Positions 7,310-57,826 are shown, counted from the first letter of the stretch. The stretch: 64,000 nucleotides of DNA from Dictyostelium discoideum (GCA_000004695.1 CM000153.2:3616001-3680000); one strand, 5' to 3'. Numbers and translations: made by a program. The notes: generated from the sequence alone by a model not told the origin.

Positions 7310-8630
7310 ATTATTATTATTATTATAGCATGAAGTTAAAAAATTATCATTTAAAGTTACAACATATGAAGATAATAATGAAAAGATTGAATTTCAAGTT
7401 AACTATAAATCAAATGTTGTTACATTAACACCAATTGAAATTGCAACCAGTATTTTAGAACAAATTAAACATACTGCAGAGACATTTATTGGTGGTGAAT
7501 CAATTAAGAAGGCCGTTATATCAGTACCAACAGATTTCACAGAGAAACAAAGAAACGATTTGAAAGAGGCAGCCACAGCAGCAGGTATTACAGTTGTTAG
7601 AATGATTCATGAACATTCAGCAGTTGCATTAGCATATGGTTATGATCAAGTTAAGGAATGTTCAGAGACAACTAATGAATCAAAGGAGAGCAATGTTATG
7701 GTATTCGATTTGGGTGGTAGTGGTGTATCAGCATCAATGATTAGAGTTAGATCTAAATTATTCGAAATGATTGGTAATGTCTCTGATCACACTGTAAGTG
7801 GTGAGCATTTCGACCATGTTTTAGTACAACATTTCACCCAAGAATTCAACAGAAAATATAGATGTGACTTGACAGACAATGCACGTTCAAAGGCCAAATT
7901 AAAGAGTGCCTGTGAAAAAGCCAAGAGAAACCTTTCAAATATGACCCAAGCCGCTTTGGAAATCGATTCACTCTATGATGGTCGTGATTTCTTTACAAAC
8001 ATCACCAGAGCTCGTTTCGAAGATATGGCAAGTGGTTTAATTAAAGGTTCAATCAATGCCGTCTCTCAACTCTTAGAGAAATGTAATATGACTAAAGAAC
8101 AAGTTGATAAGGTTTTATTGGTTGGTGGTGCTTCTCGTATTCCTTCCGTTCAAAATCAATTACTCAACTTCTTTGATAATAGACAAGACATCTTGGAGAG
8201 ATCAATGAATCAAGAGGAGGTCGTCGCCCATGGTACCACCATTCAAGCAACTATCCTTGCCGCCGATAAATCTAATCAATCTTTGACCTGTAATTCTTCA
8301 AATATCTCTATGGGTGCTCCATTCAGTGCTAAATTCACCCCTGTCACTATCGGTATCCAAGATTCAAATGGTAATTTAATCCCAATCATTCCTTCATCTT
8401 CCCTCATTCCATGCAAACGTACTTTCACTTTAAATACTTCCTCTGAAAATCAAGATAATCTTAATATGGCAGTCTATCAAGGTAGTGCACCACTCGCCAA
8501 AGATAATCAATTGGTTTCACGTTTCATCTTTAAATCTTCTCCAAATCCAATCGATGTCACTTTTGAAATTGATAATAACAATACTTTATTAATTAAATCC
8601 GAACAAGCAAATTATTCAATTAAATTTTAA
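6848..8630 (+). CDS. Divergent short Hsp70-family protein, most similar to HSPA14/Hsp70L1 (ribosome-associated complex Hsp70). Exons 6848..7099 and 7329..8630, about 518 aa.
   Basis: Exon 1 reads MANNNIMGIDFGTHFACVGIF...NQQGNRTTPSVVSF (Hsp70 phosphate-1 and connect-1 motifs). GTAAGT donor at 7100, TTATAG acceptor at 7327/7328, in-frame junction. Exon 2 reads VISVPTDFTEKQRNDLKEAATAAGITVVRMIHEHSAVALAYGYDQ, which resembles HSPA14 [43 protein letters not shown]. It also has LLVGGASRIP. There is no full substrate-binding domain and no EEVD tail. Confidence 0.7.
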
Positions 8631-9940: not shown

Positions 9941-10918
9941 AATTTAACTAACAATTATTTATTTTTTTACTTTTTATTTGTTGTTTTTTATTTTTAAATT
10001 TAGTTAGTTCATAATTATCAAATTCAATTCCCATTTCCACCTAAAAAATTAAATAAATTAAATGTTAATATTATAGAGATTAGAAAGAAGGCATTACAAG
10101 ACTTTTTAAAATTTTTAGTTATCCATCCATCGGCATCCGTAAGAAAATCTGATGATGTAATTAGATTTTTGGATCAAAATACAGCAAGTTTTAATAATAG
10201 TTTGTATCAAATTTTATTTTTTTATTTATTTATTTTATATTAACATATTTAAAATCTATTTTCACCTTTTTTTTTTTTATTATTTTTTTATTGAAAAAAA
10301 GAATTAATTAAAGAGAAATTAACATTCGAACAAGTTAATCAAAAAAAGAAATCAGTTAAATTAGAAGTATCAATTGTGGAGGGTAAAGAATTTAGATTAC
10401 AAAAGAAATCAATGTGGGATATAGTTTCATATTGTATTTTCGATGTTGGACATGAACCTATTGATGGTCAAAAATCAACTAAAAAAACATCAATCATTGC
10501 AGGTCCATATCCAAGATGGAGTTATAAAACAAAAGTTACAATTAAATCAAGCGAACCACAAAAAACATTATACTTTAAAGTATTTAATCAAGAATCAACT
10601 TTATCAATAACTCCTTCAGGTGGTAGTAGTGGTAGTGGTAGTGGTAGTAGTGGTAGTAATAATATAAATAATAATATAAATAATAATAACAGCAATAATA
10701 ATAATAGTAATATAAATAACGGTGGTAGTGGTATTTTAGATGATAATAATAGTGGTAGTGTTACAATTAACACCAAAGATTGTAAAGTAGATTTAATTGG
10801 ATCTTGTTCTGTTGATATCGATAAATTACAAATTACAAATCAATCTCCAACTTTGCATGTATTACATTTAGAACCTGAAGGTTCTGGTGAAATCTTAATT
10901 TCATTATTATTATTGTAA
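9722..10918 (+). CDS. PX-domain plus C2-like domain protein. Exons 9722..9898, 10004..10187, 10302..10918; about 325 aa.
   Basis: The PX signature (RRFSEFHSLYELV ... FPFPPKKL ... IRKKALQDFLKFLVIHP) is split by an intron (GTAATT donor, AATTTAG acceptor). Exon 3 has a C2-like block (KLEVSIVEGKEFRLQKK...YFKVFNQ), then a Gly/Ser/Asn-rich tail. Splice phases 0/1 are consistent. Confidence 0.6.
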
Positions 10919-39523: not shown

Positions 39524-40016
39524 AAAAAAAAATAAAAAATATAATGAAAATAAAATAAAAATAGAATGACAAAAAAAAAAAAAAAAAAAAAATTATTGAA
39601 ATAAAAAATAATTGTAAATGGTATTTTTCATTTTTTTAATTTTTTTTTTTTAATTTTTTACCACACCAATGATTTAAATCTCACAAACAAGATAAACTGT
39701 TTTTTTTTTTTGGAATTTTTTTTTTTTTTTTTATTATTTTTTGTAAGTGGGGTGTGAGATTTAAATCATTGGGCTATGTTGGGGTTGAAAAAAACGGTTT
39801 TTTTGGATTATTTTCACACAAGCTGTTTTTTTTTGGTGTGGTAAAAAATTAAAAAACTTCTCATTTATGAACGACAAGGGCATGATTAATTGAAAAAAGA
39901 GTATATTTTCATTTCCCAACAGAAAATATCATTATCACACACTTAATCTAGATATTAGAAAATTTATAATTATTTGAATAATAAAAATTATTATATTAAT
40001 TTTATTATTTTAAATT

Positions 40017-40047
<31 letters not shown>

Positions 40048-40148
40048 GTTTTTATCATTAAAAAAAAAACTATAAAAAGAAATTTTTTTTGTTTTCTTTT
40101 CATTAAATAAATTTCAAAAGTAAAAGGTATAGTATTAAAAATTAAAAA

Positions 40149-40978
40149 ATGTCTGTTGATGCAAATAAAGTAAAATTCTTCTTTGGTAAAAACTGCACTG
40201 GTGAATCATTTGAATACAACAAAGGTGAAACTGTAAGATTCAACAATGGTGATAAATGGAATGATAAATTCATGTCATGTTTGGTTGGTTCAAATGTTAG
40301 ATGTAACATTTGGGAGCATAATGAAATTGGTAAGTATTTATAAATATTTTCTATTTTTATAAATTATAAATAATATTAATAGGTTTAATTTATTATTATT
40401 ATTTTAATTTTAAAATATAGATACTCCAACTCCAGGAAAATTCCAAGAATTGGCTCAAGGCAGTACAAACAATGATTTAACCTCAATAAATGGTCTTTCA
40501 AAGTTCCAAGTCTTACCAGGAGCTTTTCAATGGGCAGTTGATGTTAAAATTGTCAACAAAGTTAATTCAACTGCTGGTTCATATGAAATGACCATTACTC
40601 CATACCAAGTTGATAAGGTTGCTTGCAAAGATGGTGATGACTTTGTTCAATTGCCAATTCCAAAACTTACTCCACCAGATTCTGAAATTGTTAGCCATTT
40701 AACAGTTCGTCAAACACATACACCATATGACTATGTAAGTTTATTATTATTATTATTATGATTATTATTAAATATATAATTAATTTCTCTTTTATTAATT
40801 TTTAATTTTTATCTTTCTATAAATAAAAAAGGTTGTAAATGGAAGTGTTTACTTTAAATACTCCCCAACAACTGGCCAAGTTACAGTTATTAAAAAAGAT
40901 GAGACATTCCCAAAGAATATGACTGTTACACAAGATGATAATACATCTTTCATCTTTAACTTAAACTCTGAAAAATAA
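40149..40978 (+). CDS. cadA: Calcium-dependent cell adhesion molecule 1 (DdCAD-1/gp24). Exons 40149..40329, 40421..40734, 40832..40978; 213 aa.
   Basis: [60 protein letters not shown]|[14 protein letters not shown]... matches my recollection of DdCAD-1 (betagamma-crystallin-like N-domain followed by an Ig-like domain; 213 aa). GTAAGT donors at 40330 and 40735. Acceptors TATAG (40419/20) and AAAAAG (40830/31). Phases are consistent. Confidence 0.75.
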
Positions 40979-41052: not shown

Positions 41053-41297
41053 TATTTTTATTTTATTTTTTTTTTTATTTGTTTCGATATTGGCTTAATT
41101 TGTAAATAACTTCATGTACACCAACGATATGACAAATTAAAATTGGGTCATTGCGATGGTGTTAAGAGATGTTTTATAGGCTCAGGGTTTCTAATTAGAA
41201 AATAAATCAGAAGTCAATAAAATTTCTTCAACTGGATCTTGGTGAAACGAAAGTGGTCTAATTTAATTATTTTTATTTATTTTTATGGAAGCGGGAA

Positions 41298-41331
<34 letters not shown>

Positions 41332-42425
41332 ACCTCAACCAATTAGGCAGTGTCTGAGTTTTATTTAATTTTATTTTGGTAGTATTTAAAAATTCTTAAT
41401 TATTTATGTAATTAGTATTGAATGAACAATAATGAACTAAATGTTCTGGTACATAAGTTCTCATTAATTGTGAATTCCAAGAGTGACTAAATTTTTCTAG
41501 CTTTTTCATTATTTTCCAAGTGTAGTCTAAATGAGGGTCTTTATTTCCAATCTTCTTAAATGATCTATTACTTTTAAAACGAAAGTATGGCGGGTCTTGA
41601 CGGCTTCTGTTGTGCCGTACCGGGGTGTCATGTCGGCCGTTTGTGCCGTCGGATGGTTTTGAAAACTACCTCCCCAGATTCGATTATAGTATTATAATCC
41701 CTCATTTCGGAGTTTTTAATTGCGGTACTTATTGGTCTGGTTATACATGTCTGAGGAGATTTTTGCTTTAACCCATCAATATGAGCAGTGTTTATTACTT
41801 CCTACTCTTGATCTAGGTCCTCTATGTTTATTACAAGCCAACAGGATATCGAACCGTTGTCCTAGGGTGTGCGTCGGTATTTACCTATCAGTGCCCTTCA
41901 AAGCGGGAAATTTTTTTTTTTTTTGAATTGGATAACGCAATTATTGGTTGCTTCTCCTTGAGATGCTAGATCTCATTTATTTTAGTATTTTTACAGGGTC
42001 TCTAAAAGAGGGGTTAGTTTACTTTTTTTTTTTTTTTTTTTTGTTTCTAATTTTGAATTGTATTATTACTTTTGATTAAAACATCTTTTTTGTCCAAACT
42101 TTTTTCAAAAACTTTTTTTATTTTATCGTCTGGCGACAGTTTGGCGGGTCTTGAAGTTGATGGTGTGACGAATACCCAACCTCCACTCATACTATCGGTG
42201 AAACCTTAAGCCACTTTCGTGACCGACACTCGCTCTCATCTCTCGCGCCACTCACTCGCCATTCGTCTTTATATATATTTTTACTTTTATCGACTTACTT
42301 TGTGTGAGCGCGATACCCCCTGTCTCCTTCCCGTTACTTGAAGTGTCTCGCCAGTGTACCACACGTTTACTATTGCAGTGACTGACTAACCAACGGCTTG
42401 CACTATCAGGGCCAATAAGCGGGAA
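41053..42425 (-). mobile_element. Tandem array of at least three short poly(A)-terminated retroelement units in minus orientation (U2 42425..41914, U1 41913..41293, U0 41292..~41053), head-to-head with the tRNA-Tyr gene. Probably TRE5-type (upstream tRNA-targeting) module-only derivatives.
   Basis: On the minus strand each unit begins ATTTCCCGCTT and ends in oligo(A), seen as 14-36-nt T-runs on plus at 41293-41328 and 41914-41927. U1 and U2 share an internal TCAAGACCCGCCA motif, have atypically GC-rich bodies, and carry no long ORF. The array's 5' end lies 33 bp from the tRNA start. The family name is recalled, not tested. Confidence 0.5.
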
Positions 42426-42458
42426 ATATGAAGCCAAAAAATAATTTAATTTCATCAA

Positions 42459-42541
42459 CCGGCTTTGGCGCAATGGTAGCGCGATTGACTGTAGTAATTA
42501 AAGTGATCAATCGGTTGCTAGTTCGAATCTGGCAAGCCGGA
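42459..42541 (+). tRNA. tRNA-Tyr (anticodon GUA) with an 11-nt intron (42495..42505) one base 3' of the anticodon
   Basis: Acceptor stem CCGGCTT/AAGCCGG. D-arm GCGC-AATGGTA-GCGC. Anticodon stem ATTGA/TCAAT with loop CTGTAG[intron]A. T-arm GCTAG-TTCGAAT-CTGGC. Discriminator A. T6 run immediately 3'. Eukaryotic tRNA-Tyr genes canonically carry an intron at 37/38. Confidence 0.85.
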
Positions 42542-42542
42542 C

Positions 42543-42565: not shown

Positions 42566-42578
42566 AGGGTTCGATTCC
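42566..42578 (+). promoter_or_regulatory. External B box (ex-B) downstream of the tRNA gene
   Basis: AGGGTTCGATTCC matches the B-box consensus GGTTCGANTCC, about 25 bp 3' of the tRNA. Many D. discoideum tRNA genes carry such an extra TFIIIC site, which is implicated in TRE3 targeting. Confidence 0.6.
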
Positions 42579-42808
42579 TTGTAAAAAATGGTAGAATGAA
42601 AAAAGTCGAAACACACATGATCATGACTGTCACTTGCTGCTAAACCGTACCGCTATCAAGAGGATACAAGATACACGTGAAAAGTAATTCATCCTTTTCT
42701 ATCCTTAATCTCGGTCAATTTTAACCAATCTTTCGAAAAAAATCACCAATCCACCACGATCTACAGATCTAACTTACCAAATCGCCGATTCAAAGGAATC
42801 CCATCGAG

Positions 42809-43882
42809 ATGAATTCCTACGCAGACGCGGCTAAAATGGCCAACCCCTCCACCCATATGGACGAGGCATCGGAGAACTTCATTAAGGAATTCTCCACAAA
42901 AACAGCAGAGATAAAGGAAACTTACCCCAAACTATCAATAGGCCTCAAAGACATCTCCAAATACTGCGAGACCATATTGAACATGACTGCGCTCTCAACC
43001 TACGAGAAGAACAACGGATTCTACCCAATTACACTCGAATTCCCCAAAATGGATCTCAAGGGGTTAGAAGAAATGAGAAAAACACTCTCAAACTACGATA
43101 TCCCAATCGACAAGATATACATAGGCAAAGGAACTAGAAAAATGATCCACCTGATGATTAAAAACGAACAATCTCTCCTAAATATCATTAGAGATAGAAG
43201 CAAATTGGGAACCTTCATCACCTCCAGTAGAGACTTCCACGTCCTCACAGGAAGAGTAAGAATTCCCAGAGAAAAGGCAGGAATAGTGGACGCCCTCATC
43301 AAAACTGCCTTTGCAGAAGAAATACCCTATGCAATATACAATACTATATACTCCACCGACCACCTCATAGTATTCGGTCTAATAGAATGCAAAATAGGCG
43401 ATCAAATGAAATCTGGCCAACACATTACAGAAATCGCAAACTTTACCATCAGAACGGCCACCAAAACCTACTCCTCACAAAAGAAAAACAAGAAAGTAGA
43501 GACAAACAACACGGAGGAACCATTAGAAGATGAGATGACAGATCCTCCTAACACTCAAAACAGGATAGCAATCAAATCCTCTCAACCAAAACCACAACAA
43601 CAAACAAACAACTCAGCAAACAATCAGTCTGATAAACAATCAACACAAGAGAAAAAAGCTCAAGCAAAAAAGTCATCTCAACCTCTTCCCCCCAAAAACC
43701 CAGCAGAATTTCAATCTGTCAAACCCACCACAACCACTACCACAACATCCAACGCCATCCAAAAAGACAATGCCAACAAAACAAGCACTAACATCCATTC
43801 ATCCTCGGAAAACAGAGAGAAGACACTAAACATCCCTCCAACTATACACCGAATTTCAAAAACAAAACGACTACAACAATAA
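42809..43882 (+). CDS. Retrotransposon ORF1 protein (357 aa)
   Basis: ATG-initiated ORF with elevated GC. Basic/Ser/Thr/Gln-rich C-terminus. Position and composition as expected for TRE ORF1. No cellular homolog recognised. Confidence 0.6.
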   Translation: MNSYADAAKMANPSTHMDEASENFIKEFSTKTAEIKETYPKLSIGLKDISKYCETILNMTALSTYEKNNGFYPITLEFPKMDLKGLEEMRKTLSNYDIPIDKIYIGKGTRKMIHLMIKNEQSLLNIIRDRSKLGTFITSSRDFHVLTGRVRIPREKAGIVDALIKTAFAEEIPYAIYNTIYSTDHLIVFGLIECKIGDQMKSGQHITEIANFTIRTATKTYSSQKKNKKVETNNTEEPLEDEMTDPPNTQNRIAIKSSQPKPQQQTNNSANNQSDKQSTQEKKAQAKKSSQPLPPKNPAEFQSVKPTTTTTTTSNAIQKDNANKTSTNIHSSSENREKTLNIPPTIHRISKTKRLQQ

Positions 43883-46800
43883 GGCTAACATCAAAAATCT
43901 AATCTCCCTACTAGAGACAGAATTTAAAGACCAAGCCTTCGCAACCCTTTCAGCAATAAATGAATCTAAAAAAAGAGAAGAACAACTTAAACAAGAATTG
44001 AACAACTATTGCGAAGAAACCTCACTCAAGTACATCTCCGCGAGAATCAAGAAAAGACACAATGATTTCACCATCAACGCAGTAAAAGATGCACAAGGTA
44101 GAACAATTAACAAACAGGAATTGATCGAAGAAGAATACGTAAAATATTACTCAAATCTTTATGACTACAAAGAAGATGACCCACTATCTCATTACGAAAT
44201 GTTGGAAAATTGGACAGTGACCAGGGACTCGACATGGGACAACCTTGAAAATGAATTCACCTCACAAGAAATCCTAGAAGTAATAAAACAACTGAACCCA
44301 CACAAATCTCCAGGTCCAGATGGAATTCCAAACTTATTCTACATAACACACAAAGAAAAACTAGCTCCAATACTGGCCTCAGCATTCAACGACACTCTAA
44401 GAAATCCTCATCTAATTAGCAAAAATTACAAAGAAGGCCTCATTATCACGATACCTAAAAAGGGAGACCCCGAACTAATCAAAAACAGAAGACCAATTAC
44501 ACTGGCTAACTGTATATATAAAATCCACTCAAAGCTAATAAACAATAGAATAATCCCAATACTAACGAAAGTGATCAACAACAATCAAAAAGGTTTCGTA
44601 CCAGGCAGATTCATTATAGATAATATCATATCAATGAACGAATTAATCAACTATTGTAATGATAAAAGAATTAACGGAATAATTACACTATATATTTCGA
44701 AAAAGCTTNNNNNNNNNNNNNNNNNNNNNNNNNNNNNNNNNNNNNNNNNNNNNNNNNNNNNNNNNNNNNNNNNNNNNNNNNNNNNNNNNNNNNNNNNNNN
44801 NNNNNNNNCTCATCTAATTAGCAAAAATACAAAGAAGGCCTCATTATCACGATACCTAAAAAGGGAGACCCCGAACTAATCAAAAACAGAAGACCAATTA
44901 CACTGGCTAACTGTATATATAAAATCCACTCAAAGCTAATAAACAATAGAATAATCCCAATACTAACGAAAGTGATCAACAACAATCAAAAAGGTTTCGT
45001 ACCAGGCAGATTCATTATAGATAATATCATATCAATGAACGAATTAATCAACTATTGTAATGATAAAAGAATTAACGGAATAATTACACTATATGATTTC
45101 GAAAAAGCTTTTGACTCGATCTCACACGGTTCAATACTTAGATCACTACAACACATCAACATTCCAACCAATATAATCAACCTGATAATGAATCTACTCA
45201 CCAAATCTGAAGCAAGAATTGAAATTAATGGTAGAACTACTATACCCTTTGAGATCAAAAGAGGAGTTAAACAAGGAGATCCACTATCACCCACACTGTT
45301 CGTCCTTGTAATAGAGGCTTTAGCTAGAAAAATTTTACAAGATGATCGAATTACTGGCCTTCCTCTAAACAACAGCAACCACAGAGAGAAATTCCAAAGC
45401 TTTGCAGACGACTCGGCTTCAATGGTCCCAGACTCTCAACAACTTGAATTAGTACTACAACACTTCAATTCATTTTGCAAAGCCACTTCCTCAAAACTAA
45501 ACATCGACAAATCTTCATCAATTCTTATAGGCAACCCAGACAATACCAACCAAAGAATTCCAATATCTACAAATCCAGAAAGATACTTGGGATACTTCTT
45601 CACAGGTAAAGGGATAACAAGAAAAATGCCAGAAATATTAAACACAATAAGATCATCCTTAGTACTATGGAAAACCACTGACTCAACAATAAAAACCAAA
45701 ACCAACATCCTCAAAGCATTCGCACTCTCTAAATTAACCTACTATTCATATGTAGAGAACTTTAAGGAAGAGGAATTAAACCAAATCAATAAATTAGTCG
45801 AATGGTTTTTATCGGCACCAAACAACAAAAATGCTAGTGGATTTCAAGTTATTAATTTAATGAGAACCAAAAGAGCAAGATACCCACTAAAAGTAGGGGG
45901 CTGGAACATTTGGAATATAGAATTGAGACAACTGGCGCAGAAACTTTGGATCATAAACCAGTTCATACTAGCACTAGAAACCAAACAAACAAACTCATCT
46001 CATCACAAAAGCTGGGAATATCAGATCCAAAAAAACAAATTCACATCCAGATACCTAAAAGAAAACTTAGACGAATGGAACAAAATAAGAATAAAAAAAG
46101 CAATCTTCAACAATAATCTCACATCCATAAAAAACGAAAATGGACAACCACTTTCACTGGCAGAATGGTATACCACAATTCAAGACCAAAATCCAACCAT
46201 CCCTAAAACTGAATTCCAATCATCTCTAAACTTAAGAGGCTACAGCTATAATCAACTCTTCAACAACATACTGAAGATAAAAGACCCTAAAACAAGAGAC
46301 ACAATGTTTAGATTCCATGCCAGATGTCTTCCAATAAACTACCTTCACAACAAACAATGCCCACTCTGCAAAGAAGATATGAGCAAAGACCCATACGGTC
46401 ACCTGTTCTTCTCATGCAAGAAAACAAAACAATTCATAAAAATAAATAAACTCAAAAATTTCATCTATATTACCACAGGCAAAGGTAAAAACTGGCACCA
46501 TACAAGAATTAGGCAAAATAACAATTTCATTAATAGAATAACTCCAAAATTATCACCGACATCCAAAAAAGATCAAGAAGTGAATGCAGATTACGCCAAC
46601 CACAGATCCCACAAAGAATACTTTGAATGGAACTATAAAGCAATAGACTATGATCTAACCAGATCATTCGCATATAGAAACCTAATGGCCCTTATCCTCC
46701 ACAACATTTGGATTTGGATTTGCAATCAAATATACAGTGAAGATCCTTTAACAGATGAATCACTATCATACAGCTCCCTTCTAAAGAAATGGCACAAATT

Positions 46801-46987
46801 GGCCACTCTAGAATACATCAAAAAAGCAAAAGATCTGAAAAACTTATCAGCAAAAGACCATAATAACTTCAAAGATCCTAAGATCCTTCTCACTTCAACG
46901 ATCAAGCTAAGAAAAACAACAGCTAATTACTATTGTATTCCAGAATCATCTCTCCCAAATATTATATCTTTTGATCAATTCATATGA
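43830..46987 (+). pseudogene. Retrotransposon ORF2 (reverse transcriptase plus C-terminal Cys-His finger), 5'-deleted for the APE domain and interrupted by an assembly gap and duplication
   Basis: RT motifs as listed for the mobile element. The frame is open from 43830 but has no canonical ATG before the RT. It overlaps ORF1 in the +1 frame. The N-run at 44709-44818 with about 300-bp near-identical flanks breaks the frame. Confidence 0.6.
44709..44818. other. Assembly gap (110 N) with near-identical roughly 300-bp sequence on both sides (44401-44708 and 44811-45100)
   Basis: The run of n is flanked by duplicated ORF2 sequence differing by single-base indels (aaaattacaaag vs aaaatacaaag; tatatttcg vs tatgatttcg). 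This is a scaffolding/overlap artefact rather than biology. Confidence 0.9.
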
Positions 46988-47112
46988 TTAAAATAACCCT
47001 TCAGCTTAAATGATAAGCCTTTAAATAAATATTAAATAAAACTCGTATTAACACAGATGGACATATATCAATCTTGTTAATCCAATATTAAAAAAAAAAA
47101 AAAAAAAAAAAA

Positions 47113-47545
47113 CTTGCTGCTCAGGTTTAAAGAGTGATTTTTTCTGGGTAGTCAATCTTGTTAATATTAAAAAAAAAAAAAAAAAAAAAAAAATTCTGGG
47201 TATCAGGTAATGCAAATCCATGTCCATCAGGATGGTCAGTGGAATACCCAGTCAGAACTGCATCAATCACAAATAATCGATTAACTTGGTACTGGTGTGC
47301 AGATATATTCGATGTTGGTGGCATGTTGAGCAAAATACATTCTCATCAGTTCTAAATTGTGGTTATCAAGCCTATATTATTGGTACAATCACACCTTCAC
47401 AACAACCAATAGATATTTGGTTAATTCATTTTGTTCAAATGATGGTTCTATGGTTAGATCAAATACTAAACCAATAACATCTGATGCTACTAAAAATTTA
47501 TGTGCAAAAGGGAAAATAACAATCACCAATTCAAATATTGATACC
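47113..47545 (+). pseudogene. Truncated, frameshifted, inverted duplicate of the N-terminal domain exon of the EGF/TIG gene (intact copy at about 55680-56100, minus strand)
   Basis: Three overlapping frames read SGNANPCPSGWSVEYPVRTASITNNRLTWYWCADIFDVGG / VLNCGYQAYIIGTITPSQQ / RYLVNSFCSNDGSMVRSNTKPITSDATKNLCAKGK. The intact gene reads SGSANPCPSGWSVEYPVRTAPITNNQLTWYWCVDILDVGG...VLNCGGYQAYTIGTIT...NRYLVVSFCSNQGDMVESNSKPITSDATKNLCTKGK. The copy starts right at the TRE3 poly(A), lacks the signal peptide and EGF repeats, and ends in AT-rich DNA. Confidence 0.75.
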
Positions 47546-47996
47546 TCTTGATAAAAAATAAGCCCAAAAACAAAAATAAAAAATAAAAAATAAAAAATAA
47601 AAATAAAAAAGTGAAAAAATAAAAAATAAAAAATTAATTTTATAATTTTATAATTTTATTATTTTATTATTTAATTTTATTATTTAATTTTATTATTTTA
47701 TTATTTATTATTTAATTATTTAATTATTTAATTATTTATAAAATTTTAAAAAATAAATAAACATCTATTGCTTAAGATGTAAATCTAGATCTTACAAATA
47801 GAATGTATTTTGGATCCATTTCACTATTTTATATTTTTTCTATTGTTTTTTAAAAGATTAAAGCAAGGAATTCTTAGTTTTAAAATTAAAAAAAAAAAAA
47901 AAAAAAAACGTATTGACGTTATTTTTTTTTTTTTTTTTCTAATCACTTTTTTTTTTTTTTTTTAATTTTTATTTACTTTTTTAATATTTATCAAAA

Positions 47997-49649: not shown

Positions 49650-50684
49650 ATGAAGTTTTTTCAAATTTTATTAGTTTTTTTTATTGTTGTAATTAATTTA
49701 ATTAAAGCACAAATTGCTTCAAAATTTCAAATAACAATTTTAAATGGATGTGATCAAACTTTTACAGCTGAACTAGATAAATGCTCAACAATTGGTGCAT
49801 GTGGTTTTTCGTATGCCAAAGTAACATATGATTCATTCATGGGTGATTTTACTGTAAATATGTATAAAGAAAATATGTTTAGATGTAATGAAGCTATGCC
49901 AGACAATTTTATAATTTTTGATTGTGGATCTGGTAGTTCATTCCCAGGCCAATACTCAATAAAGTGTATTAAACCGTCTGCAACAACAGCAACAACAACA
50001 ACAATATCAACAACTTCACATTCAACAACAACAACAACAATATCAACAAGTTCTACAACTTCATCTACAACAAATGGAAATACAATTAGTAGTGGAGATA
50101 GTGGTAGTGGTGGTGGAACTAAATCATCAACAACTGCACATTTGTTTTCCTCTTTAAGTTCTACATCTTCTTCCTCTACATCACCACCACCAACTACAAC
50201 TTCAACTACAACTTCAACTACATCTTCTTCCTCTACATCACCACCACCAACTACAGCTTCAACTACAGCTTCAACTACAACTTCAACTACATCTTCTTCA
50301 TCAACTACTGGCGGAGTTAGTGGTGCAACTTGTGAAATAACTTCAAACTCAAGTTTAATAGTTAGTTATATAGCAAATACACCATATATTCAGTGCAATG
50401 GTTCCCCAGATTTAAACTGTAATGGTTTATGTTCAAATAATTCAAATTATACTAGAACTTGCTACGCTAATAAATTCATCAATTGTTCAGGTATATCTAT
50501 CAAATGTTCAATTGATAGTGTTGAAGTTTGCAAAGTACATTGGCAATATGACCCATCTTCAACTACCTCAACCTCTGAAGTTGGACCATTACCAAATCAT
50601 TCAATTTCAAATTTCAATTTCATTTCAACATTTTACATTACATTTATATTATTAACTATTTTTCAATATCATTTAATCATTTGA
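49650..50684 (+). CDS. Secreted Ser/Thr/Pro-rich cell-surface glycoprotein, probably GPI-anchored (PsA/mucin-like), 344 aa
   Basis: N-terminal signal peptide (MKFFQILLVFFIVVINLIKAQ). Cys-containing globular domain. About 130 aa of S/T-rich repeats with STSPPPTT motifs. Second Cys-rich domain. C-terminal hydrophobic tail (FISTFYITFILLTIFQYHLII) typical of a GPI-attachment signal. Confidence 0.6.
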   Translation: MKFFQILLVFFIVVINLIKAQIASKFQITILNGCDQTFTAELDKCSTIGACGFSYAKVTYDSFMGDFTVNMYKENMFRCNEAMPDNFIIFDCGSGSSFPGQYSIKCIKPSATTATTTTISTTSHSTTTTTISTSSTTSSTTNGNTISSGDSGSGGGTKSSTTAHLFSSLSSTSSSSTSPPPTTTSTTTSTTSSSSTSPPPTTASTTASTTTSTTSSSSTTGGVSGATCEITSNSSLIVSYIANTPYIQCNGSPDLNCNGLCSNNSNYTRTCYANKFINCSGISIKCSIDSVEVCKVHWQYDPSSTTSTSEVGPLPNHSISNFNFISTFYITFILLTIFQYHLII

Positions 50685-50929: not shown

Positions 50930-53900
50930 TTATTTATTTATTTTTTTATTTAGCATAGTATTTAATTGTTTCTTTTTCTTTCTATCTCTAAATACAAAAG
51001 CACCTATACCAGCAATTGCAACAGCAGCAGCACCACCAATTGATACACCAGTTGCTAATTTCCAATCGACAGTTTTATCATCTTCACATATACCAGTTGG
51101 TTTATTATTGACATTTAAGAGCATACCAAAATCTGGATCAATTAATGATTCATTTTTAAAGTATGGTACGGAAATACCAATCACAGAAGTGGTTCTAGAT
51201 GGTGATTCTAAAGATTCAATATGTGCAATAACTGGATGACCATCAACTGATGCATAGGAAATGAATCTTGTGATCATACCAGTTTCAGGATTTTCAGTGG
51301 TTGTCCAAAGATGTTGATTATAAGTTGAAACGGTTGGTCCATCAATTGAACATTGATTGGCATCATCATTCAATAAAAGAGTTTCAGTTTGAACAACGAT
51401 TCTAAGGGAATTTAATTTTCTAAGGAATGGCCATTTTTGAGTTTTGAATGAAAGTTTAATTGATTCTGATGGAATTACAAAAGAGTTTGAAGCAAAGGTA
51501 ATATTACGTGATTGTTTAAAGTATTCAAATGTTGCTTCCAAATAAGATTGATTTTCAAGAGTAATATTGAAAGTCCATTGATTAGTTGATGAATGACGAC
51601 CCCATTTAGATTGTAATAAATCGATTGAAACTTCAACTTGATCATTAATATCTAATTCTTCAATTCTAATGATGGTGATTTTATAACCAAATCCATTTTC
51701 ACTATTATTGCTACCAACATTAATTGATGGAACATCGACTGTTGGTGGGATTGGATCAATTTCTGCACGAGTTTCATTACATGAAAGACCAGTGAAACCA
51801 ATATCACAAACACAACCACTTGGAGTACATTGACCTTTTCCACTACAATCCAATGGGCATCGAGTATCTTCCAATGTTGAGTAAGTGAAATAGTAATCAT
51901 TGGCAACTGGTAAATTATCAACAACCAAATCAATTAATTGAGAGTAAATAACAGATGTTGACTCTAATTCACAAGTTAACTCTGTATGAGATTTAATTTC
52001 AACATTACTACAATGTTTATTACCAACACTAAGAGTAGCAAAAGATTTAGTTACCAAACCAAAGTTTTCACCAAAAACTGTTAAAATACCACCACTTGAA
52101 TAGACGTTTGATGTTGATTTAATAATTGGATTTGCATAGGTTATATAGGTTGTATCTGTGTTTGTTACAGATTCATTATATAATCTAATATAATTGTAAC
52201 TACCTGAACCTTGACCAATTGTACAAGTAATCTGTTCATTTGATATTATTTGGGATACTGGGCAATTAATTGAGTTGATAATTATTTCAACTAAACCTAA
52301 AGTTGGGAGATTTCTACCAGTTATTGTAATTAAATCATTACCAATAGTTGGTGGATTATGTGAATAACTAACAATATATGGTGCACCAATAAAATTGAAA
52401 GGATCTGATAAAATGTTATTTGCTTCAACTATAACATTACCAATAACTTCTTTACCTTCTCTACTTGAACATTCAGTATATGTATCATTACCAGTAACAT
52501 AATCACAAATCATTTCACCAATTGTAACCTTTGTATCAAACTCTACGAAATTGATACCTTGAACAACAAATATATTGGATCTGAATGGTTTTTGATAAAA
52601 ATTTGTAATGATAGGTTTTGGTTCACATGTAAATGGAGATGAATGAGAATAATCTGATGGATTACATTGACAAACATAACTACCATTTCTATTTTCACAA
52701 ATTGTATTTGAACTACATTCATTCAATTCATTTGATAAACATTCATTAATATCTTCACAATAGGTACTATTATTTGAAAATCCATTCGATGGACAAATAC
52801 ATGAATAGGAACCATCGGTATTTTGACAAGAAGTAAATTCACCAACACATTTATTATCACCATTTTCACATTCATCAATATCATCACATGATAATTTATT
52901 TTCATTTAATGTAAAACCTGAATTACATGAACATGAGAAACTACCAACTGAATTTGTACAAACTTGAATACAACCACCATTATCAGTAGAACATTCATCA
53001 ATATCATCACATTTTTTATTGTCTTGATTTAATAAATAACCTGAATTACAAGAACATTGGAAACTACCTTGTAAGTTTTTACAAACGTGTTGACAATCAC
53101 CATTATTAGTTAAACATTCATCAATATCATCACAATTTTTGTTGTTTTGATTTAAAGTGAAACCTAAATTACATGAACATTGGTAACTACCTATTTGGTT
53201 TATACAAATTTGTCCACAATCACCGTTATTAGTTGAACATTCATCAATGTCATCACATGTTTTGTTATTTTTATTTAATGCAAAACCTGAGTTACAATAA
53301 CATCCGAAACTACCTGGAATATTTGCACATTTTTGATCACAACCACCATTATTTGAAATACATTCATCAATATCATCACAAGACTTTTTATTATCAACAT
53401 TTAAAGTATAACCTGAATCACATGAACATGAGAAACTACCAACTGAATTTGTACAAATTTGACTACAACCACCATTATCAGTAGAACATTCATCAATATC
53501 GATACAACCTGAACCTGTAAATGAGTAACCATTTGGACATGAACATTGATAACTTCCTGGAGAGTTTGCACAATTTGCAGTTCCACAAATATTTTGATCA
53601 CATTCATTTATATCATCACATGATAATTTATTTGAATTTAATGTAAAACCTGAATTACATGAACATGAGAAACTACCAACTGAATTTGTACAAATTTGAC
53701 TGCAACCACCATTATCAGCAGAACATTCATCAATATCAATACAACTTGAACCTGTAAATGAGTAACCACTTGGACATGAACATTGGTAACTTCCTGGTGA
53801 ATTTGTACAATTTGCAGTGCCACAAATCTTTTGATCGCATTCATCTATATCAATACAACCTGAACCAGTAAATGAATAACCACTTGGACATGAACATTGA

Positions 53901-55469
53901 TAACTTCCTGGTATATTAGTGCAATTTGCAGTTCCACAAATCTTTTGATCGCATTCATTTATATCATCACATGATAATTTATTTGAATTTAATATAAAAC
54001 CTGAATTACATGAACATGAGAAACTACCAACTGAATTTGTACAAACTTGTGTACAACCACCATTATTAGTTAAACATTCATTTTTATCTGTACAAGTCTT
54101 TTTATCAGTACTCAATAAATAACCTGAATTACATGAACATGAGAAACTACCTGCTGAATTTGTACAAACTTGACTACAGCCGCCATTATTAGTTGAACAT
54201 TCATTTATATCATTACAATTCTTTTTATCAGTACTTAATATATAACCAGAATTACATGAACATGAGAAACCACCTGCTGAATTTGTACAAACTTGTGCAC
54301 AACCCCCATTATTAGTTGAACATTCATCAATATCTACACAACTTGAACCTGTAAATGAGTAACCACTTGGACATGAACATTGATAACTTCCCACTGTATT
54401 TGTACAGTTTGCAGTACCACATATTTTTTGATCGCATTCATTTATATCTGCACAAGTCTTTTGGTCAGTACCTAATAAATAACCTTGATTACATGAACAT
54501 GAGAAACTACCTGCTGAATTTGTACAAACTTGATTACAACCACCATTATTAGTTGAACATTCATTTATATCTGTACAGGTCTTTTTATCAGTACCTAATG
54601 AATAACCTGAATTACATGAACATGAGAAACTACCAACTGAATTTGTACAAATTTGATTACAACCACCATTATTAGTTGAACATTCATTTATATCTGCACA
54701 AGTCTTTTGGTCAGTTCCTAATGAATAACCTGAATTACATGAACATGAGAAACTACCTGCTGAATTTGTACAAACTTGATTACAACCACCATTATTAGTT
54801 GAACATTCATTTATATCTGCACAAGTCTTTTTATCAGTACCTAATGAATAACCTGAATTACATGAACATGCGAAACTACCTGCTGAATTTGTACAAACTT
54901 GATTACAACCACCATTATTAGTTGAACATTCATTTATATCTGTACAGGTCTTTTTATCAGTACCTAATGAATAACCTGCATTACATGAACATGCGAAACT
55001 ACCTGCTGAATTTGTACAAACTTGATTACAACCACCATTATTAGTTGAACATTCATTTATATCTGTACAAGATTTTTTATCACTATTCAATGTGTAACCT
55101 GCTCTACAAGAACATGTGAAACTACCTGCTGTATTTGCACAATTATGAGCACAACCACCATTATTAGTTGAACATTCATTTATATCTACACAAGTCTTTT
55201 TATCAGTACCTAATGTGTAACCTGCTCTACATGAACATGCGAAACTACCTGCTGAATTTGTACAAACTTGATTACAACCACCATTATTAGTTGAACATTC
55301 ATTTATATCTGTACAAGATTTTTTATCACTATTCAATGTGTAACCTGCTCTACAAGAACATGTGAAACTACCTGCTGTATTTGCACAATTATGAGCACAA
55401 CCACCATTTGAAGTTGAACATTCATTTATATCTAAATTAAAGTTTATTTTTTGAAATTGAAAAAAAAAA

Positions 55470-55505
<36 letters not shown>

Positions 55506-56240
55506 GTTAGGAAAAGTGAAAAAAAAGTAGAGGGCAGGAAAAGTTGAAAAAAAAGTTGAGGGAAGGAAGAGTTTAAAAAAAAAAAGTTGAGAGAAGGAAA
55601 AGTTGAAAAATAGAAAAAAAAAAGAATTGAAACAAAATAAAAAATAAAAGAAAATATAATACAAACCTGTGCATGAAGGAGCTGTTCCTGTATAACCGCT
55701 TGGACAAACTGCTGAATAAATTTCTAGGTACCTAACATCTGTGATTGTTCCTTTTCCTTTTGTACATAAATTTTTAGTAGCATCAGATGTTATTGGTTTA
55801 GAATTTGATTCAACCATATCACCTTGATTTGAACAAAATGAAACAACCAAATATCTATTGGTTGTTGAGAAGGTGATTGTACCAATTGTATAGGCTTGAT
55901 AACCACCACAATTTAGCACTGATGAGAAAAGAACTTCTGTAGTGAAGCCTCCAACATCTAAAATGTCTACACACCAATACCAAGTTAATTGATTATTTGT
56001 AATTGGTGCAGTTCTGACTGGGTATTCCACTGACCATCCGGATGGACATGGATTTGCAGAACCTGATAACCAGTAAAAATCACTCTTTGAACCTGATCTA
56101 CAAGTGGCTGTAGTAATTTGAGTTATAACTTGTTTAACACATGCTCCATTAGCTAATGTTGTTCCTGCTGGACATGTTTGACAAAATACTCTCCCCAAAA
56201 AAATTAATAAAAATATAAAATTTAAAAATAATGACTTCAT
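50930..56240 (-). CDS. Large type-I membrane protein: signal peptide plus a roughly 170-aa N-terminal domain, more than 25 tandem calcium-binding EGF repeats, IPT/TIG domains, one TM helix and a short basic tail. Exons 56240..55667 and 55431..50930; about 1,690 aa. ComC/Tgr-like adhesion/signalling architecture.
   Basis: Exon 1: MKSLFLNFIFLLIFLGRVFCQTCPAG...CPSGYTGTAPSCTG, GTTTGT donor, phase 1. Exon 2 starts (D)INECSTSNGGC after a TTAATTTAG acceptor. It has DINEC/DIDEC...NGGC...C.N..GS(F/Y).C.C..G(F/Y) repeats throughout, then PIITNFYQKP...(TIG), CPLDCSGKGQCTPSGCVCDIGFTGLSCN, a TM (GVSIGGAAAVAIAGIGAFVF) and RDRKKKKQ. Confidence 0.75.
51700..55431 (-). repeat. Tandem array of about 129-bp units, each coding one cbEGF module, with long stretches of near-identical nucleotides between units
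   Basis: Strings such as acctgaattacatgaacatgagaaactaccaactgaatttgtacaaa recur at about 52915, 53640, 54000, 54130, 54610 and 54730. Confidence 0.8.
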
Positions 56241-56987: not shown

Positions 56988-57055
56988 CACTTTTTTTCAT
57001 TTTTTAATTTTTATTTTATTTTTTTTTTTTTTTTTCCAAAAGGTTATAATTAAAA

Positions 57056-57419
57056 ATGTCGAATACAACAACAACCGCAACAACAACAAATATAAATGAA
57101 AATAAAGTTAGAGAAATATATAAAGCCCCAATGAAAATTGGGGAAATTGAATATATACCCTATCAAGGTGAATCACAAATTCAAGATTTAATGAGTTTAA
57201 TAGAGAAAGAATTACCAGAACCATATTCAATTTTCACATATAGATTTTTTTTAAATCAATGGCCAGAGTTATGTTTTTTAGCATATTGTAATGGTCAATT
57301 GATTGGTGTTATCATTTCAAAGAAACAAACCCATAAATTATTAGAAAGAGGTTATATTGGAATGATTGTTGTAGATAAAACATTTAGAAGACAAAAAATT
57401 GGTATGTTTGCTTATTAAA

Positions 57420-57499
<80 letters not shown>

Positions 57500-57826
57500 T
57501 ATTTGGTTTTTTTTTAAAAAAATAATTTAAATAAAACTTTCATTTATAAATATAAAATGGAAATTTCAAACAAATCCATCAATTGAAACCCCATAATAAT
57601 AATAATAAAATTAGGATCAACTCTTATTAAATTAACAATTGAAAAAATGATTGAAATGAAATGTGATGAAGTTGTTTTAGAAACTATTTTTACAAATATT
57701 CAAGCGATTTCATTATATGAAAATTTAGGTTTCACAAGAATAAAAAGATTATTTAGATATTATACAATGGGAGCAGATGCAGTTAGGTTACTTTTACCTT
57801 TGAATGATAAATTTTTAATAAAATAA
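57056..57826 (+). CDS. N-alpha-acetyltransferase 30 (NatC catalytic subunit, Mak3 homolog). Exons 57056..57401 and 57615..57826; about 185 aa.
   Basis: YRFFLNQWPELCFLAYCNGQLIGVIISK...RGYIGMIVVDKTFRRQKIG | [63 protein letters not shown] is collinear with human NAA30 (YRYFIHNWPQLCFLAM...RGYIAMLAVD..YRR.GIGTNLV...[43 protein letters not shown]). GTATGT donor at 57402. TTAG acceptor at 57613/14. The intron contains (TTA)n. Confidence 0.85.

Follow-up and report, generated by a model that had tools for sequence, protein, structure and literature searches.

The window analysed here is a stretch of 64,000 nucleotides of chromosome 4 of Dictyostelium discoideum AX4 (GCA_000004695.1 CM000153.2:3616001-3680000), in which a tRNA gene, a TRE3-type non-LTR retrotransposon, a much smaller retroelement insertion and a decayed fragment of a receptor gene lie side by side on the plus strand, with the related receptor gene on the minus strand. 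The tRNA gene (42459-42542, plus strand) was detected with ARAGORN and is present at the orthologous site in three further genomes, L006 (a divergent genome labelled D. discoideum), L007 (D. cf. discoideum) and L008 (D. citrinum). The default mode of ARAGORN returned Thr(UGU) with a long extra arm, and its intron mode Asn(GUU), for which an 11-nt intron would occupy a non-canonical position; given an intron at the canonical position (37/38), the gene reads as Tyr(GUA), with C1-G72 and A73. An intron-containing Tyr-GUA gene appears more likely than Thr-UGU, and the isotype needs checking for annotation. An external B-box-like motif, GGTTCGATTCC, can be read 3' of the tRNA gene at 42569-42579 (plus strand), and is kept intact in L006 and L007 and almost intact in L008. 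The external B box has a role in TRE3 targeting (PMC5911963), and TRE3 elements target an interval 40-150 bp (about 100 bp) 3' of a tRNA gene, with matching orientation (PMC5911963, PMC5006619).

The receptor gene begins on the minus strand with exon 1 (55668-56240), recognised by its translation, which comprises 191 codons from the ATG at 56240 and encodes a signal peptide followed by a cysteine-containing domain of ~170 aa. The part of this exon homologous to the plus-strand fragment is 56117-55726. Exon 2 matched the Pfam families cEGF (1e-178), EGF_CA (1e-155), TIG (4e-13) and ComC_SSD (2e-13), and in the encoded protein TIG domains, a ComC supersandwich domain and a transmembrane helix come after a cbEGF array; the label 'EGF/TIG gene', given to it in a preliminary description of this DNA, is a fair one. 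All four of these features are shared with the ComC-type EGF/IPT-TIG proteins (ComC_SSD, PF22933), but the N-terminal ~170 aa of the receptor lie outside any Pfam family. A search with exon 1 against 1.84 billion cluster representatives retrieved three proteins only: an orthologue from D. firmibasis at 64% identity, a partial protein of D. purpureum at 43%, and P0001, a 149-aa D. discoideum protein whose cluster includes DDB_G0285819 of strain AX4 and for which a Pfam search likewise found no family. A separate ORF at 49650-50684 was 100% identical to DDB_G0285801 of AX4, as was the reverse transcriptase ORF of the retroelement to DDB_G0285835; a literature search found no paper naming either of these loci or DDB_G0285819.

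Exon 2 (50930-55336) carries a long array of near-identical cbEGF units, which in an assembly comparison gave off-diagonal matches of 77-87% at shifts in multiples of about 123 bp, so that the array is prone to mis-assembly and to unequal crossing-over. Receptor orthologues ranged from 1647 to 1893 aa in length among the loci of the D. discoideum complex and D. citrinum, and the D. firmibasis orthologue was 1092 aa long.

DNA related to exon 1 was found on the plus strand in three pieces. A 5' stub (42620-42641) lies immediately before the large TRE3 and holds, at 42633-42641, the left copy of the 9-bp sequence CTTGCTGCT; a short segment between the two retroelement pieces (47113-47150) aligns to 56104-56067 of the gene and ends with the left copy of another 9-bp sequence, TTCTGGGTA; and the main body (47194-47546), identified by its alignment to exon 1, bears four disablements. 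With the retroelements set aside, 42620-42641, 47122-47150 and 47203-47546 are collinear with the reverse complement of 56117-55726. A BLAST comparison of 47196-47526 with 56073-55741 gave E=4e-109, and 309 of the 354 sites in the ungapped core (87.3%) were identical to the gene. The similarity of 85-90% to exon 1 that had been proposed was thus upheld, but not its extent, given as codons of about 50-190; the homology spans codons ~42/49 to 168/172. The alignment also bears out that the fragment is inverted relative to the gene and decayed at the DNA level, with frameshifts and an early stop as previously suggested. Relative to the gene there is a 1-nt deletion after 47339, a TAA at 47353-47355 that constitutes the first in-frame stop, a 3-nt deletion after 47358 and a 2-nt insertion at 47390-47391. 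The objection that the similarity might be confined to low-complexity sequence fails, since the BLAST match covers unique, moderately GC-rich coding DNA.

The 22 nt at 42620-42641 matched 56117-56096 of the gene at 14 of 22 ungapped positions (p about 0.001), and when the 90-100 nt preceding the TRE3 were aligned locally, without an anchor, to the first 144 nt of the gene, the score was no higher than for shuffled sequences. This anchored stub appears to be the sole credible homology upstream of the TRE3, and the 5' end of the fragment is only approximate, as no significant homology was found upstream of 42620. At the other end, the fragment stops before the exon 1/intron junction and is followed on the sense strand by an A-rich tract (47547-47640); A-rich simple sequence is the usual intergenic background at this locus, and no duplication was seen around the fragment itself. 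All pairwise comparisons of the gene, this fragment and a second fragment described below gave dN/dS values of 0.68-0.80, which is close to neutral. We consider that 47113-47546 represents an unprocessed pseudogene fragment of exon 1 of the ComC-like cbEGF/TIG gene, presumably without function, and that it should be labelled as a pseudogene fragment in annotation.

A search for other copies of the N-domain turned up a second fragment on the same chromosome (L001 10081-10504), about 36 kb beyond the window fragment and in the same orientation. It sits between unrelated genes, covers the same part of exon 1 and, within the region 10001-10670, corresponds to the hypothetical protein DDB_G0285819 / ACTFIT_005692, with a frame that is open for 149-176 aa. 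The second fragment runs through the exon 1/intron junction (ACAG/GTTTGTATT) into the start of the intron, which indicates that the fragments were derived from genomic DNA and not from spliced mRNA. Beyond it, at about 10508-10668, lies a further partial tandem copy in a badly degraded state. Rather than being a gene, DDB_G0285819 is probably the relic of one.

Across the 354 ungapped core sites, the window fragment was 92.1% identical to the L001 fragment, which in turn was 89.7% identical to the gene; the window fragment had 16 unique substitutions, the gene 25 and the L001 fragment eight. Over the matched part of 47113-47150, the window fragment was identical to L001 10082-10109 at 28 of 28 positions. 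A neighbour-joining tree that included gene orthologues from three other genomes clustered the two fragments with 85% bootstrap support and placed all copies within the D. discoideum complex relative to D. citrinum; when the tree was rooted with the orthologues, support was weak everywhere save for this pairing. The closest relative of the window fragment in the genome would therefore seem to be the L001 fragment and not the neighbouring gene. The preliminary description, in which the fragment was a duplicate of the gene 8 kb away, was correct in relating it to that gene, but the L001 fragment is closer (92.1% versus 87.3%). The window fragment and L001, the latter ~150 bp further along, also share AACAATC...ACCAATTCAAATA, which is suggestive of an L001-like ancestor in which short direct repeats had mediated a deletion of the DNA between them.

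Like other unprocessed pseudogene fragments, the window fragment is a partial exon copy with frameshifts and stops that evolves near-neutrally and has suffered deletion in relatives. What distinguishes this case is that the parent gene is flanked by two orphan copies, which lie within about 37 kb and are inverted relative to it, and that one of them (DDB_G0285819) is still open in frame and annotated as a gene. Co-duplication of the tRNA gene with the fragment was rejected, since the tRNA gene in L001 (20243-20333) lies 10 kb from the second fragment and is unrelated to that of the window.

Two other gene pairs were noted in the neighbourhoods of the fragments. Crystall_3/Membrane_bind paralogues occur at 39989-40969 of the window and at L001 5543-6559 (72% DNA identity, inverted), and GNAT acetyltransferase paralogues at ~57037-57807 of the window and L001 19282-19803. 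These paralogous neighbours hint at an older, since rearranged, segmental duplication of the whole neighbourhood.

The large TRE3 (42642-47112, plus strand) was recognised by its reverse transcriptase domain (RVT_1), its complete 5' and 3' ends and its A24 tail. It contains an assembly gap of 100 N (44709-44808), whose flanks (44407-44708 and 44809-45110, 303 bp) represent the same sequence at 99.3% identity, and the gap is thus an unmerged, redundant overlap. In an independent assembly (L002, GCA_054883475.1), probably of the same strain lineage, the copy is gap-free and has a true length of 4070 bp, so the gap can be closed. Relative to an intact 5247-bp copy (L003 1059-6305) the element is 99.6-99.9% identical with like termini, and lacks 1175 bp corresponding to L003 2258-3432, that is, the 3' end of ORF1 and the endonuclease region. 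What remains is an ORF1 at 42809-43882 followed by ORF2 fragments. The Pfam match to RVT_1 was E=2e-24 in the window copy and 7.5e-34 in the intact copy; in the latter, Exo_endo_phos was matched over its full length but weakly (22.7 bits against a cut-off of 24.5), and there was a faint zf-RVT zinc finger match (E=0.36).

The best matches of the reverse transcriptase were to D. discoideum reverse transcriptase proteins, and its 90%-identity protein cluster contained 79 member sequences. Another copy of the family in L003 is flanked by a 10-bp target-site duplication, and a separate family in L004 was 43% identical and had a different 3' end. The window element appears to be young and non-autonomous, having arisen by deletion within a multi-copy family that is probably TRE3-A, going by the 5.2-kb length of the intact copies. 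It resembles TRE3 elements in general in having two ORFs, a reverse transcriptase, a poly(A) tail, a short target-site duplication and 99% identity among copies, and in lying 99 bp 3' of a tRNA gene in the same orientation; it differs from them by the 1175-bp internal deletion, through which the endonuclease region is lost.

A perfect 9-bp duplication of CTTGCTGCT flanks the large TRE3 exactly (42633-42641 and 47113-47121, the latter being the right target-site duplication, identified by sequence match), and one further occurrence, on the minus strand, was found in the 64 kb, against 0.01 expected by chance. When the element and one copy of CTTGCTGCT are excised, ...GTCACTTGCTGCT is joined to CAGGTTTAAAG..., collinear with ...GCCACTTGTAGATCAGGTTCAAAG... 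in the gene, and the rebuilt empty site matches the gene across the junction without a gap. As the element has its own 9-bp duplication, it entered an intact, continuous stretch of DNA, and it inserted inside the fragment, about 20 nt or more from the fragment's 5' end. The preliminary description had placed the retroelement at the broken end of a duplicated and inverted segment; this is contradicted by the CTTGCTGCT duplication, the collinear empty site and the 14 of 22 matches upstream.

The smaller insertion (47151-47193, plus strand) consists of GTCAATCTTGTTAATATT followed by 25 A, or G plus TCAATCTTGTTAATATT plus A25, a total of 43 bp (18 nt + A25), and is absent from both the gene and the L001 paralogue. 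A perfect 9-bp duplication of TTCTGGGTA abuts it on both sides (47142-47150 and, as the right target-site duplication recognised by sequence match, 47194-47202), and these are the only two occurrences in the 64 kb. The counterparts of this site are TTACTGGTTA in the gene and TTCTGGGCA in the L001 fragment, and both can serve as empty sites because each holds a single, uninterrupted copy. That the paralogous copies provide an internal empty-site control, as they do for both TRE3 insertions, is a rare circumstance. The last 23 nt of the canonical TRE3 tail, determined from four copies, are ATCAATCTTGTTAATCCAATATT followed by (A)n; aligned as GTCAATCTTGTTAAT-----ATT, the micro-insertion matched this tail at 17 of 18 nt, with one 5' mismatch and a 5-nt gap at CCAAT. 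By comparison with the canonical tail, the micro-insertion therefore carries a 5' mismatch (or an untemplated G) and has no CCAAT. The 14-mer TCAATCTTGTTAAT occurs exactly, within the window, only in the micro-insertion and in the tail of the neighbouring element. No source tail devoid of CCAAT was found among four 3' ends of the family (one in the window, one in L002 and two in L003), and the tail of the L004 family was unrelated; the gap may stem from a source copy with a variant tail, or from slippage between AAT repeats while the RNA was being reverse-transcribed.

Sequencing error can be ruled out for the A-runs and the duplications, since the independent assembly GCA_054883475.1 was identical to window positions 46900-47700 at 801 of 801 sites, both A-runs included. 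Strain comparison for the insertions drew on two genomes, L002, which was identical, and L006, which is without the target region. The data support the view that the micro-insertion is a TRE3 copy that was dead on arrival, with extreme 5' truncation and a 9-bp target-site duplication. Its interpretation as an abortive product of target-primed reverse transcription, made previously, accordingly holds in its main points, namely the TRE3 tail, the poly(A) and the flanking duplication, which occurs once each in the gene and L001 and withstands the objection of sequencing error. The piece itself had been described as 42 bp, ending in ATT(A)24 and comprising the last 18 nt of the element; it is indeed TRE3 tail plus poly(A), but is 43 bp long, has A25 and is gapped at CCAAT.

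Dead-on-arrival LINEs such as mammalian L1 copies similarly comprise a 5'-truncated 3' end with poly(A) and a target-site duplication, and the possible untemplated or mismatched base at the 5' junction is a further likeness. The micro-insertion differs from them in its extreme shortness (17-18 templated nt) and in having its site set by a tRNA gene, not by an AT-rich nick consensus. It differs from TRE3 elements at large in being cut to 18 nt plus poly(A) and in being without the CCAAT of the canonical tail. The 5'-truncated integrations of TRE5-A (PMC3159450) offer a case for comparison. The micro-insertion indicates that target-primed reverse transcription can abort at <20 nt and yet leave a textbook target-site duplication.

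The age of the fragment was assessed by comparing the orthologous interval, from the tRNA gene to an FNIP-repeat gene, in L006, L007 and L008. The L006 interval has the tRNA gene, the B-box motif, the fragment and the same 3' junction, with neither the TRE3 nor the micro-insertion. It cannot be used as an empty site, because about 105 bp are absent at L006 7636-7650 (relative to window positions 42603-42641 plus 47122-47237), including both target sites. Between AX4 and L006 the fragments were 86% identical and the gene N-domains 93%, a divergence greater than expected, and the two fragments had five derived sites in common. In L007, a remnant of ~55 bp (8024-8081) scored above all shuffles and bears GAGCAAATACATT, which is typical of the fragments rather than the gene; no fragment was detectable in the tRNA-FNIP interval of D. 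citrinum (L008). Given the L006 orthologue and the L007 remnant, the fragment predates the divergence of D. discoideum from D. cf. discoideum, and it is undergoing loss by deletion. Both TRE3 insertions are taken to be recent, in view of their pure A-tails and an identity of at least 99.6% to the intact copy. The relationships of the gene and the fragments seem to be near star-like, and gene conversion or unequal rates are likely to complicate their history.

At four positions (56060, 56059, 55887 and 55763), the L006 gene matched the fragments, although the genes of AX4, L007 and L008 have a common state there. These sites, the sole sign of any process other than decay, could reflect gene conversion or ancestral polymorphism.

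The tRNA gene organises the locus, and was absent from the earlier account. The large TRE3 starts 99 bp from the end of the tRNA gene at 42542, on the same strand and inside the targeting interval; with this element removed, the point of the micro-insertion lies 128 bp from the tRNA gene, also inside the interval. The occurrence of two TRE3 events only 29 bp apart is explained by the tRNA gene targeting both, and the locus provides a compact case of tRNA targeting steering repeated TRE3 integrations into a zone of roughly 30 bp. In the reading that we regard as very probable, an old, decaying fragment situated near a tRNA gene was struck by two independent, tRNA-targeted TRE3 insertions, of which the micro-insertion came first. 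An unprocessed, DNA-level fragment of the receptor N-domain, roughly 450 bp in length, would have come to sit 60-80 bp 3' of the tRNA gene and would have decayed neutrally through point changes, small indels and deletions. One TRE3 event would then have aborted after 17-18 nt plus poly(A), 128 bp from the tRNA gene, creating the TTCTGGGTA duplication; the other would have delivered an internally deleted 4.07-kb element with complete ends, 99 bp from the tRNA gene, creating the CTTGCTGCT duplication. New TRE3 copies landing nearer to the tRNA gene would push older ones away. Both duplications, the collinearity of the fragment once its inserts are subtracted, the distances and orientation relative to the tRNA gene, and the orthology are matters of observation, from which the order of events is an extrapolation: we infer that the micro-insertion preceded the 4-kb TRE3, since after the latter had arrived the site would have been 4.2 kb from the tRNA gene, outside the targeting interval.

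The order is the part of this reading with the most credible competitor. The 4-kb TRE3 could have inserted before the micro-insertion, the latter then being untargeted or guided by the resident element. The sequence dates neither event, and since both tails are pure A-runs, neither insertion looks older than the other; the distance of 4.2 kb, far beyond 40-150 bp (PMC5911963), speaks against this order, albeit inferentially, and we consider it unlikely. The 43-bp piece could instead be a local copy of the tail of the large TRE3, arising through slippage in replication, through gene conversion or through a template switch while the large element was integrating. The two tails are 81 bp apart in the same orientation with A-runs of 24 and 25, and the CCAAT gap between AAT direct repeats could be a slippage product. 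However, slippage or conversion would not make a target-site duplication, whereas the piece is flanked by a perfect one that the paralogues hold as a single copy, and its position falls within the TRE3 interval (128 bp) when the large element is disregarded, which leaves a local copy improbable. For the large TRE3, an origin at a break would require that a duplication or inversion broke at this point, with the TRE3 inserting at or healing the end, so that the fragment starts at the poly(A). Strong homology to the gene (>85%) does begin within a few bases of that poly(A), and beyond about 22 nt upstream of the element homology is not significant. The perfect CTTGCTGCT duplication is nevertheless what an insertion into unbroken DNA leaves behind, the gene and the rebuilt empty site are collinear, the upstream matches included, and the position 99 bp 3' of the tRNA gene is canonical for TRE3 (PMC5911963); an origin at a break is thus extremely improbable.

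The nature of the fragment admits other explanations as well. That the TRE machinery mobilised the receptor mRNA and left a processed retrocopy might be suspected from the A-rich tract that follows the fragment on the sense strand and from the evident TRE activity at the locus. Such an origin is contradicted by the L001 sister fragment, in which the exon 1/intron 1 junction and the first part of the intron survive, by the window fragment's ending within exon 1, a long way from the 3' end of the mRNA, by the want of a duplication flanking the fragment itself and by the A-richness that is normal for intergenic DNA here, and we judge it to be extremely improbable. A functional fragment, whether as an exon, a small secreted protein or a gene-conversion donor for the receptor N-domain, would be in keeping with the intact 149/176-aa ORF of its sister DDB_G0285819 and with the four sites that the L006 gene shares with the orphan copies against the other gene orthologues. 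Yet the window copy is disrupted by a frameshift, by stops and by two retroelement insertions, has largely been deleted in D. cf. discoideum, is absent in D. citrinum and shows a dN/dS of 0.7-0.8, and four shared sites are too few to tell conversion from ancestral polymorphism; function is accordingly very improbable. More speculatively, both orphan fragments might act as gene-conversion donors that diversify the fast-evolving N-domain of the receptor, a notion prompted by the same four states of the L006 gene, or the fragment might be filler DNA from the repair of a break made by the TRE3 endonuclease. We give this pair of ideas little credence.

The suggestion that the locus is a natural experiment in domain shuffling finds no support: the fragment is not part of any chimeric gene, its frame is broken and dN/dS, at 0.7-0.8, is close to neutral. 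The locus is a fresh instance of well-known processes that leaves the understanding of TRE3 and of the receptor family unchanged, and its use lies in annotation and as a teaching example.

Upstream of the tRNA gene, the sequence AGCGGGAAAT(AT) was observed three times within 41290-42430, at about 41292, 41903 and 42419, the first two occurrences being followed by poly(T). These repeats resemble truncated TRE5-type insertions in reverse orientation, 30-40 bp upstream of the tRNA gene, where a target site may have been reused. The L006 interval that matches 41290-42430 of the window measures only 383 bp.
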